IMG/VR virus record: IMGVR_UViG_3300045988_094266
Source of the DNA: a virus
Direction: 5' to 3' (one strand)
Length of the DNA: 23,961 nt
Shown piece after piece: positions 1,553-2,871 of this stretch; position 1 is the first letter of the stretch, and each line of letters starts with the position of its first letter. The notes under the pieces were generated by a model, which had not been told where the DNA came from, made no database searches, and saw only the letters and a program-made list of their open reading frames with translations. Made by a program: the position numbers and the translations under genes.

Positions 1553-1600
1553 TCTTATATATATTATATAATAAAATTTTATATAAATCAAAACGCCGAA

Positions 1601-1648
1601 TTGCCAAAATTTTGGGCAATTTTTGTTATATAAAATTGCCAATTTTTT
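1601..1648. promoter_or_regulatory. site cluster A: 19-bp near-palindrome TTGCCAAAATTTTGGGCAA (1601-1619) plus half-site TTGCCAATTTTTT (1636-1648), upstream of the recombinase gene
   Basis: Imperfect dyad with 9-bp half-sites TTGCCAAAA. The same architecture recurs at 2778-2825. It also overlaps a plausible -35 (TTGCCA) / -10 (TATATA) promoter for the recombinase. Confidence 0.5.
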
Positions 1649-1670
1649 ATATATCTATGAGGTGATAAAG

Positions 1671-2294
1671 GTGTTATACGGATACGCACGAGTTAGTTCA
1701 CGTGACCAAAATATTGACCGCCAAATTCTTGCTTTAACTGAAGCTGGGGTTAAAGAAGAAAATATCTTCATAGATAAACAGTCGGGCAAAGATTTTAATA
1801 GACCATCTTATTAGAAAATGATGGATACTGTGACTTCAGGAGATATGATTCTCCTGAAGTCCATTGACAGACTAGGACGTAATTATTCTGAAATTCTTGA
1901 ACAATGGAGTTTAATAACAAAGACAAAAAATGTAGATATAAAAGTTTTGGATATGCCATTATTGGATACGTCATATTGCAAAGATATTATGGGTACTTTT
2001 ATATCAGATCTAGTCTTACAAATCTTATCTTTCTAGGCTGAACAGGAAAGAACATATATTAAATAGAGATAGGCAGAAGGAATAGCCGCAGCTAAATAGA
2101 AAGGAATAAAATTTGGTAGACCAAGAAAAAATCTTCCAGATAATTTCGATGAATTATATGAACGCTATCTACATAATGAGCCAATTACTAGATTAGCGAA
2201 AGAATGTCAAGACATATCTGAAAGCACTCTTAGATTAAGAATTTATGAGCGTTAGCAAAAAGATCGGTTAAACGGAAACCCGCAGGTCAAATAA
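1671..2294 (+). CDS. small serine recombinase (resolvase/DNA invertase family, 207 aa) with 6 in-frame TAG codons
   Basis: GTG start follows RBS AGGTGA. The N-terminus reads [12 protein letters not shown] (catalytic Ser). It contains [15 protein letters not shown], then [36 protein letters not shown], where TAG sits at positions that are Q in the conserved RERQREGI...AK.KG motif. A C-terminal HTH is present. The three ORF fragments are in one frame. Confidence 0.85.
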
Positions 2295-2345
2295 AGTTAA
2301 ATTATCTTCCTATTGTTTTATATATAATATAAAGGAGGAATTAAT

Positions 2346-2735
2346 ATGCCTGAAATTGTTATTCAAATATTCTAGCTTTGTATTCTTCCTCTGCTTGGTA
2401 TTTTAACAAAATATCTCATAGATTTCCTCTCTGCTAAACGAGATGAGTTAAATTCTAAGACAGAGAATGAAACAGCTTAGAAATACACCACTATGATATT
2501 TGATACTATTACTAAATGTGTAATAGCTACAAATCAGACTTATGTTAATAGCTTAAAAGAACAAGGTGCTTTTGATGCTGAGGCTCAAAAAATTGCATTT
2601 GATAAGACTATGGAATCTGTATTAGAGATCTTATCATCTGATGCAAAACAATATATTATTGAGACAACTGGCGACTTAAATACTTACCTAACTAATCTCA
2701 TTGAAGCCGCGGTTAATGAAAATAGAGCATCATGA
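2346..2735 (+). CDS. small membrane protein, N-terminal TM helix then soluble domain (130 aa, 2 TAG); possible holin-like
   Basis: RBS AAAGGAGG precedes ATG 2346. There is a hydrophobic N-terminus (IVIQIFQLCILPLLGILTKYLIDFL). The gene ends at TGA 2733-2735. Confidence 0.45.
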
Positions 2736-2738
2736 TAT

Positions 2739-2770
2739 AATGGGGTTACTATGCCCCATTATATTTTTAT
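2739..2770 (+). terminator. rho-independent terminator (AATGGGG-loop-CCCCATT plus ATATTTTTAT)
   Basis: 7-bp GC stem immediately after the stop of gene 2346-2735, followed by a T-rich tract. Confidence 0.5.
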
Positions 2771-2777
2771 ACTAAAA

Positions 2778-2825
2778 TTGGCAAAAATTTTGGCAAAATA
2801 GTAAAATTATCTTTGCCAAAATTTT
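2778..2825. promoter_or_regulatory. site cluster B: 19-bp near-palindrome TTGGCAAAAATTTTGGCAA (2778-2796) plus TTGCCAAAATTTT (2813-2825)
   Basis: Same 9-bp half-site consensus, and the same full-site-plus-half-site layout in the same orientation as cluster A. It lies upstream of gene 2872. Confidence 0.5.
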
Positions 2826-2871
2826 ATATAATAATGAAAGGCCAAGGGAATATTTTAAAGGAGGTAAAACT

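Follow-up and report, generated by a model that had tools for sequence, protein, structure and literature searches.

A 157-bp non-coding cassette, S (51-207), inverts near the left end of a stretch of viral DNA of 23,961 nucleotides (IMG/VR record IMGVR_UViG_3300045988_094266), which is referred to below as the window. The small serine recombinase encoded downstream of S (1671-2294, + strand) is its likely invertase, and the system is read as a switch of the Gin/Hin kind, different in form, by which a prevalent gut phage with a recoded stop codon alternates between two fibre genes through inversion of regulatory DNA. In a wider reading, towards which we lean with less assurance, the recombinase would flip S, bind without cutting the heptamers of two modules (A and B) that flank its gene, and leave to S the choice of the fibre gene to be expressed. 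A sequence-only reading of the window had suggested a recombinase-controlled switch for fibre variation; a recombinase-linked switch does exist, but the DNA that flips is the cassette at 51-207, outside the region on which that reading had settled.

Inversion of cassette S

In the window, S is found in its rarer orientation, designated W, inverted with respect to all close relatives. Window 1-216 is the reverse complement of positions 8394-8609 of the related contig L001 at 100% identity, whereas 203-584 aligns forward, and the same is observed with every close relative. The order in these relatives is U-CCGAGAAAAAGT|AC|ACTTTTTAACAGG-(S reversed)-GTTCAGTAAAGT|GT|ACTTTTTTAAAGG-g248, and the right junction of the window, CCTGTTAAAAAGT|GT|ACTTTTTTAAAGG, is the exact recombinant expected from an exchange at the cores. 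The right crossover site (196-221, CTGTTAAAAAGT|GT|ACTTTTTTAAAG, core GT at 208-209) carries this W-state junction. Regarding the left crossover site (37-62, CTTTAAAAAAGT|AC|ACTTTACTGAAC, core AC at 49-50), its inner half is genuine and its outer half derives from a repeat copy, the outer half at this site in relatives being ...CCGAGAAAAAGT.

This copy occupies positions 1-55 at the contig end. It is the reverse complement of 203-257, with which it forms a 55-nt perfect inverted repeat whose arms are separated by 147 nt, and it carries the junction of the opposite, R, state; the first 48 nt of the window are the reverse complement of 210-257, not U. The largest default k of metaSPAdes is 55. 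Since the repeat arm is exactly 55 nt long and starts at position 1, it is read as a probable overlap of the assembly graph at k=55, which would imply that both junction types were present in the source sample. A hairpin telomere or a true long inverted duplication was also considered for the terminal repeat and was rejected, since the 147-nt stretch that separates the arms is no palindrome and the left side is unique in the relatives.

Both orientations of S are found in four lineages, that of the window included. The cassette of L062 is inverted with respect to nine others, and that of L081 and L082 with respect to L083, in each case with intact outer flanks and an identical recombinase protein. 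Likewise, S in L075 and L077 is inverted relative to L076 and L078, with intact flanks, an interior that is 100% identical and a 12-nt repeat, AAAAGTACACTT. Four contigs (L071, L072, L073, and L115) start exactly at the repeat, where a graph branch is expected. Altogether, about 40 contigs show the R state and six the W state (the window, L062, L075, L077, L081, and L082), a count that favours the majority state because relatives were retrieved with the longest contigs first. Junction patterns specific to the W state gave no match in IMG/VR or in GTDB genomes, and the exact protein of the spurious open reading frame (ORF) that is specific to this state (108-263) is not on record.

The S sites are 26 bp long and in inverted orientation, and in all lineages they are symmetric about a dyad up to an asymmetric 2-bp core (N5-AAAAA-GT|AC|AC-TTTTT-N5). 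Inside S, several elements are kept in the main lineages: a TTGGnCAA element followed by a -10-like box (in all of them), a small hairpin, GAGTAAGATACTC, with two compensatory pairs, and a conserved stretch ahead of the CTGTTAAAAAGT half-site. An intrinsic-terminator hairpin with a T-run (132-170, + strand; -21.1 kcal/mol, z -5.7) is kept in six lineages. A promoter-like match, TTTACT-N17-TATAAT (53-81, + strand), spans the heptamer-like TTGGTCAA (61-68) and points towards this terminator and g248. Only 30-45 nt separate the start codons of the fibre genes from the cores (39 nt between g248 and the right core, and about 30 nt on both sides in L117/L118), a distance so short that the promoter must be inside S. 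Since S is asymmetric and would hold the promoter, one fibre gene should be favoured in each orientation. The T-run marks the transcribed strand; our guess is therefore that the gene beside the CTGTTAAAAAGT end is on, i.e., g248 in the window and the fibre gene to the left of S in the majority state.

The two fibre genes are of different types. On the right, g248 (248-886, + strand, three in-frame TAG codons) codes for a tail-fibre-like receptor-binding protein (phrog_26419, tail fiber, 9e-11). In relatives, the - strand on the left of S codes for a protein of 590 aa that has Big_3 and DUF6273 domains and whose start, LPKCILAEQ, is comparable to MECILTGQ in g248. Beyond this gene come an avd-like gene (recognised by eye, without Pfam hit), then the template repeat, then the gene of a reverse transcriptase (RVT_1, 1e-16). 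Template and variable repeat agree at 87 of 103 positions, with mismatches nearly all at template adenines in an alignment read by eye; these are T on the + strand and A on the coding strand, and the variable repeat is at the 3' end of the fibre gene. Judged by these genes and repeats, the cassette (L001 4284-8313, - strand, outside the window) is a diversity-generating retroelement (DGR).

The cassette on the right is itself variable. The C-terminal part of g248, from about 585, differs among near-identical relatives, and the whole of 585-1555, comprising this part and the small genes g909 (909-1307, + strand) and g1304 (1304-1552, + strand), gives way to unrelated sequence in relatives whose identity on either side is 95-100%. 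Other sequence stands in place of the g248 fibre cassette in L001 and L004, and L005/L006 lack the cassette altogether, with S directly next to module A. The region looks like a hot spot of cassette exchange at the strain level. Four contigs (L021, L024, L028, and L029) break at window 1574-1586, just ahead of module A.

The recombinase and modules A and B

The recombinase has 207 amino acids, a GTG start and six in-frame TAG codons read as Gln. It displays a YARVSS catalytic motif, a GRPR arm (KFGRPRK) and a C-terminal helix-turn-helix (..SESTLRLRI..), and residues 3-145 match PF00239 at 1e-30 (107 bits, against a cut-off of 23.3), so that the naming of this gene in the sequence-only reading as a small serine recombinase, next to tail-fibre-like genes, was borne out. 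Among proteins of solved structure, the best match is Sin (2r0q, 1.6e-35 over residues 2-191), followed by gamma-delta resolvase (2e-23) and Gin (2e-15); YARVSS aligns with Sin residues 5-10, including Ser9. A comparison with resolvase and invertase families, which had been called for, thus places the protein nearer Sin than Gin/Hin or Tn3, and the enteric invertases (Hin, Gin, Cin, and Pin) are not its closest sequence relatives. The match to phrog_125 (1e-52) brings the label 'DNA invertase', which is an annotation label only. The Mpi model NF009949 scored 43.7 bits against a cut-off of 272, and no NCBIfam equivalog cut-off was reached. Homologues in GenBank entries named 'Bacteriophage sp.', at 52-56% identity, are found in unrelated contexts and were uninformative.

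That this enzyme is the S invertase is likely from the arrangement of the genes. S sits 0.1-2.6 kb upstream of the recombinase gene in every lineage (1.46 kb in the window), and in L005/L006 it is separated from module A by only about 60 nt. Where distant relatives lack the recombinase, S is missing as well; the whole fibre module is absent there too. No other recombinase was found in the window or in the flanks examined, within a genome of roughly 145 kb.

Two clusters of short motifs bracket the recombinase gene. Cluster A consists of a palindrome, TTGCCAAAA-T-TTTGGGCAA (1601-1619, eight of nine arm pairs complementary), and an extra TTGCCAA (1636-1642); cluster B consists of the palindrome TTGGCAAAA-A-TTTTGGCAA (2778-2796, again eight of nine pairs) and TTGCCAAAA at 2813-2821. 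As had been noticed from the sequence, both are palindrome-plus-half-site clusters with a common layout in direct orientation, and both fit one 42-nt pattern on the + strand, TTGSCAA-N5-TKGGCAA-N16-TTGCCAA, whose heptamers are called e1, e2, and e3. Module A (1601-1642, + strand, TTGCCAA-N5-TGGGCAA-N16-TTGCCAA), upstream of the recombinase gene, is a putative recombinase-binding operator over a promoter; module B (2778-2819, + strand, TTGGCAA-N5-TTGGCAA-N16-TTGCCAA) lies ahead of the next operon. The second gene they were said to flank, at 2346-2735 (+ strand), is indeed bracketed with the recombinase gene and codes for a holin of 129 amino acids with two TAG codons (phrog_13712, 1e-32); it is followed by an intrinsic terminator (2734-2772, + strand; -18.1 kcal/mol, z -4.5).

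With up to three mismatches, the 42-nt layout matches twice in the window and never in 100 dinucleotide-preserving shuffles. Exact TTGSCAA heptamers number seven in 24 kb, six of them inside the two modules, but the 9-mer taken singly, with one mismatch allowed, has 18 matches where 11.6 are expected, which is not significant; what departs from chance is the clustering in a common layout. Since TTGNCAA is a 3-1-3 palindrome, the labelling of a copy as inverted or direct hangs on a single central base. Relatives at 70-98% DNA identity carry the module at both positions. An exact-pattern scan of IMG/VR matched the relatives' contigs (98-144 kb) at the positions of modules A and B only, the remaining matches being four unrelated coding repeats. 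The motif search that had been proposed to expose a generic promoter or UP element thus returned the three-part module at only two places in the window and in the IMG/VR-matched relatives, and this candidate was discarded. A sigma-54 reading of TGGCA-N-TTGC was rejected by eye as well, the spacing being one off and the first element of module A misfitting.

Both modules are associated with promoter-like sequences. A TTGGCA-N18-TAAAAT match (2778-2807, + strand) overlaps module B, and the TATAAT box of the promoter of the g2872 operon (2827-2832, + strand) is kept even in distant relatives that have neither the recombinase nor the heptamers. A -10-like hexamer is present in the e2-e3 spacer in every lineage, and e1 resembles a -35 box. 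A search by eye for sigma-70 promoters in U, S, A, and B gave no consistently conserved -35/-10 pairs.

The modules were first taken as res- or hix-type crossover sites between which a 1.2-kb segment with the recombinase and holin genes inverts or is excised. Such a role would suit two modules of one layout that bracket the gene and are 88% complementary over 26 nt, and Sin-type res sites are found just upstream of their own gene (PMC2428073). However, it is now very improbable and already largely refuted, for no rearrangement of the segment is seen. In place and orientation, the recombinase and holin genes agree across about 50 related contigs; with the contigs oriented by the recombinase, the fibre genes are upstream and the g2872 operon downstream, on one strand, in all of them. 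To avoid selecting on the recombinase, a second retrieval was made through g4503, 1.7 kb downstream, and 14 of 14 close relatives obtained in this way have both genes in the usual place. No close-relative contig lacks the segment between A and B, and none of the about 50 contigs shows it inverted. On excision, moreover, the holin gene would be lost.

The sequence of the modules argues in the same direction. Module B is decayed (e3 is missing from the lineages of L081 and P0077, and both e1 and e3 from L005), with module A intact, which speaks against crossover because paired crossover sites need joint upkeep. The 30-bp e2-e3 repeats differ in their central dinucleotide, TA in A and AA in B. 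Serine recombinases cleave with a 2-bp stagger, with which the odd centre of the 19-bp e1-e2 palindrome is a misfit. Neither the modules as crossover sites nor the bracketed segment as a switch is therefore supported. One divergent arrangement was dismissed: L020 is 100% identical to window 1022-3063 and diverges at 1022, where it is joined (1-1329) to a SusC-like/TonB-dependent-receptor-like gene of 42% G+C, almost certainly in a chimeric assembly.

What the modules bind is suggested by co-variation. At A and B in parallel, base 3 of the heptamer changes with the residue x that heads the recognition helix (S-x-STLR) of the recombinase. With glutamate at this residue (the window, L003-L005, P0017, and P0050), the heptamer is TTGCCAA, base 3 being G in 19 cases and T in one; with lysine (P0077 and P0082), it is TTCCCAA, including a perfect TTCCCAAAA-T-TTTTGGGAA; with leucine (P0022), it is TTACCAA; and with alanine (P0119), the heptamers are mixed. 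The corresponding pairings, Glu-C, Lys-G, and Leu with the thymine methyl on the opposite strand, are chemically sensible. This helix residue aligns with what we take to be the base-contacting position of gamma-delta resolvase, and TTGCCAAAA resembles a hix half-site minus its innermost bases. Because of the co-variation, the modules are read as non-catalytic sites; they are probably operators over promoters to which the recombinase binds. The fallback offered in the sequence-only reading, operators of a dimeric regulator at both promoters, is the one with which the co-varying heptamers agree. The correspondence of E, K, and L with G, C, and A amounts to a candidate, directly testable recognition code for the DNA-binding domain of a serine recombinase.

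Combining these elements, the recombinase would invert S and so redirect transcription to the DGR fibre gene on the left or to the operon of the g248 cassette on the right, and its DNA-binding domain would bind the TTGCCAAAA heptamers of A and B without cutting. Binding of the recombinase there, over promoter-like sequences of the operon to which its gene belongs and of the late operon that follows, may provide autoregulation or coupling.

Several points weigh against this reading. The co-variation comprises four classes that are phylogenetically non-independent, and every other phage protein diverges alongside. The S half-sites are without the class-specific heptamer, which would leave binding at the crossover sites unexplained if the helix-turn-helix reads TTGCC; the nearest family is that of the resolvase Sin, not Hin/Gin; and the failure to find another recombinase covers no more than the window and the flanks examined. 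Promoter function in S is suggested by a consensus match (10 of 12 positions), and it is the terminator inside S that follows this match. Elements like e2 (TTTTTGGRCAC, then a -10-like box) are present in relatives without the recombinase (L097 and L098), and a further one, TTTGGACAA-TTT-TATTAA, is found at about 12052, upstream of a GIY-YIG gene; these elements hint at a promoter class independent of the recombinase. Finally, position B is a regulatory hub that holds other regulators in distant relatives. In L093/L094 (4650-5600, no recombinase), a divergent gene resembling LytTR-type regulators by eye lies between the holin gene and the g2872 homologue, and tandem TTGTGnnnnGAAAA-type repeats stand ahead of the same conserved -10 box (TTTTCATATAAC TATGAAAG).

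The points on promoters and regulators would also be expected if the modules were operators or promoter elements of another phage or host factor, the recombinase acting on S only, and so would the -35-like e1 and the -10-like hexamers of the e2-e3 spacer. This explanation is possible but doubtful: base 3 would then have no cause to follow the recognition helix of the recombinase, full heptamer clusters occur only beside the recombinase gene (in the 24-kb window and the relatives' loci), and no further DNA-binding gene was recognised locally.

The kinship with Sin and the missing heptamer in the S half-sites could instead be accounted for by a Sin-like resolvase acting on multimers of a circular replicon with module A as its res, another recombinase, perhaps of the tyrosine type, being in charge of S. 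Recombinase-binding motifs directly upstream of the gene are indeed a trait of Sin/beta systems. Yet module A has its three heptamers, spaced by 12 and 23 bp, within 42 bp, whereas a Sin/beta res extends over 86-90 bp as an inverted-repeat site I, a spacer for HU and a direct-repeat site II, and no second dimer site lies at the distance expected of such a res. The symmetry of the S sites up to a 2-bp core fits a serine and not a tyrosine recombinase, the overlap regions of the latter being 6-8 bp long and asymmetric. Taken with the adjacency of S and the gene in all lineages, and with the want of another recombinase in the window and the flanks examined, this makes such a division of labour quite unlikely.

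Alternatively, the heptamer modules could be accessory sites, bound by the recombinase and acting in cis on the inversion of S. This would be a hybrid between the logic of Sin/Tn3, with its bound regulatory sites, and that of Hin/Gin, in which a remote enhancer occupies the 5' end of the invertase gene. We consider it unlikely; if true, a single late-expressed, TAG-gated enzyme would not only set a promoter switch but also sense its state, and this switch would select either the DGR-diversified or the cassette-type fibre in one of the most prevalent gut phages.

Lastly, the modules might act as RNA, in the form of hairpins or weak intrinsic terminators, and not as protein-binding DNA. Module B folds at -15.3 kcal/mol (z -4.1), good folds are likewise obtained for the A regions of L005 and L055, and there is a terminator-like call at 1615-1640. 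Nevertheless, this possibility can hardly be credited, since the pairing partners shift (e2-e3 in the window, e1-e3 in L005, and e1-e2 in L055), module A of the window folds unremarkably (z -1.0), and conservation extends to the heptamers but not to stems and T-runs. The preferred reading remains that of a recombinase which would flip S and bind the modules uncut.

Comparison with known inversion systems

Close parallels in form are found in Hin/hix of Salmonella, where a small serine recombinase likewise lies beside a short invertible segment with transcription signals. The sites are also alike, with 26 bp, an A-tract at positions 4-8, two further bases and an asymmetric 2-bp core (hixL is TTCTTGAAAACC AA GGTTTTTGATAA, with its A-tract at positions 4-8), as is the GRPR minor-groove arm. 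In contrast to Hin, the recombinase gene is here outside the segment, which is only 157 bp long, the enzyme is nearer Sin, and a Fis enhancer is neither known nor expected in a Firmicute host; the output would be a choice between two divergent genes, not the on/off state of one operon.

As in the G segment of Mu with Gin and the C segment of P1 with Cin, the gene of a phage serine invertase directly follows the tail-fibre genes downstream, and the receptor-binding protein produced should change on inversion. While Mu and P1 invert about 3-4 kb of coding DNA, swapping fibre C-termini behind a constant N-terminus, the cassette described here is non-coding and stands between two complete divergent fibre genes, one of them a DGR target. 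Host-range inversion of coding segments is known from these phages; here, a tiny non-coding cassette appears to redirect transcription.

With Sin (Tn552/pI9789), beta, and Tn3/gamma-delta, the system shares motif clusters of mixed orientation upstream of the gene over promoter-like sequence. Sin binds inverted and direct repeats alike (PMC2428073). The binding of resolvases to res over their own promoter also offers an analogy for autoregulation. The differences from Sin/beta systems lie in the module, which has three 7-mers in 42 bp where those have site I, HU spacer and site II over 86 bp, and in the presence of a further module 1.2 kb downstream. Resolution products were not seen, and S appears to be the catalytic substrate. 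Mixed populations also arise from the invertible polysaccharide promoters of Bacteroides fragilis (Mpi) and from fimS, which are short promoter segments with inverted repeats of 10-20 bp. Nonetheless, the recombinase falls far below the Mpi cut-off, fimS uses tyrosine recombinases, and both systems are bacterial, not phage.

Three layers of adsorption plasticity would be combined in one phage, namely inversion, the DGR and strain-level exchange of the fibre cassette, and stop-codon recoding of the recombinase gene itself would be a further gate above them. Such a switch bears on phage-host dynamics in the gut and on annotation, as pipelines tend to call genes of this type integrase or resolvase.

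The phage and the remainder of the window

The window has 32% G+C, and its + strand genes from 248 to 5861 carry many in-frame TAG codons. When TAG is read as sense, complete genes reappear and long ORFs add up to 25.8 kb instead of 16.0 kb. Since five of the six TAG codons of the recombinase gene align with glutamine in homologues of standard code (P0077 and P0017), the phage is one of genetic code 15, with TAG read as Gln. No tRNA gene, and hence no suppressor tRNA, was found within the window. TAG codons are abundant in the late and structural genes, the recombinase and holin genes, a RuvC-like gene (nine) and one replication-side gene (13), the TAG-rich spans being 248-5861 (+ strand), 6379-6858 (- strand), and 18797-20548 (- strand); most replication genes have only zero to two. 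Replication and nucleotide-metabolism genes occupy the - strand at 5875-23681, and Pfam notes on relatives list RuvC, dUTPase, NrdD, radical SAM, and GIY-YIG.

The source phage is very common in the human gut: the exact g4503 protein is indexed in 1972 blocks of a public assembly collection, in contigs of 100-290 kb. Its genome is about 140-150 kb in size. None of the annotated GenBank phages is closely related to the window, and a paper on phAss-1 and TAG-recoded Clostridia phages names neither a recombinase nor a DGR (PMC10607447). The near-complete relative L109 (CALWOP010000177.1, 148,971 bp) is binned in a metagenome-assembled genome of an uncultured Oscillospiraceae, which is a weak host clue; the host is probably a Firmicute.

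With regard to the genes downstream of module B, g2872 (2872-3297, + strand, nine TAG codons) is the first of a late operon. The g3569 protein (3569-4474, phrog_16490) has a hydrophobic N-terminus rich in glycine and tryptophan and repeated CCC/CC motifs (..SNCCCDTK.., ..ADCCCETG.., and, at the C-terminus, ..NCCYSMNSCGC), and its gene stays beside the holin gene even in distant relatives. Rfam models gave no meaningful match over 1-3000.

A perfect 21-nt hairpin, AAAATCCTCCTTTCTTAACTT / AAGTTAAGAAAGGAGGATTTT, is found at 6307-6362; in - strand mRNA, the ribosome-binding site of the gene at 5875-6306 would thereby be base-paired to an anti-Shine-Dalgarno sequence. A similar hairpin sequestering the ribosome-binding site, CCTTCTATCTAG...CTAGATAGAAGGAGG (L001, about 8285-8340), precedes the DGR fibre gene in relatives. 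The GIY-YIG-type gene (11549-11980, - strand) was recognised by eye from ..KVYIGQT.., and window 11551-12034 is missing from L001, L019, and other relatives that match on either side. This region is probably a mobile homing-endonuclease insertion.

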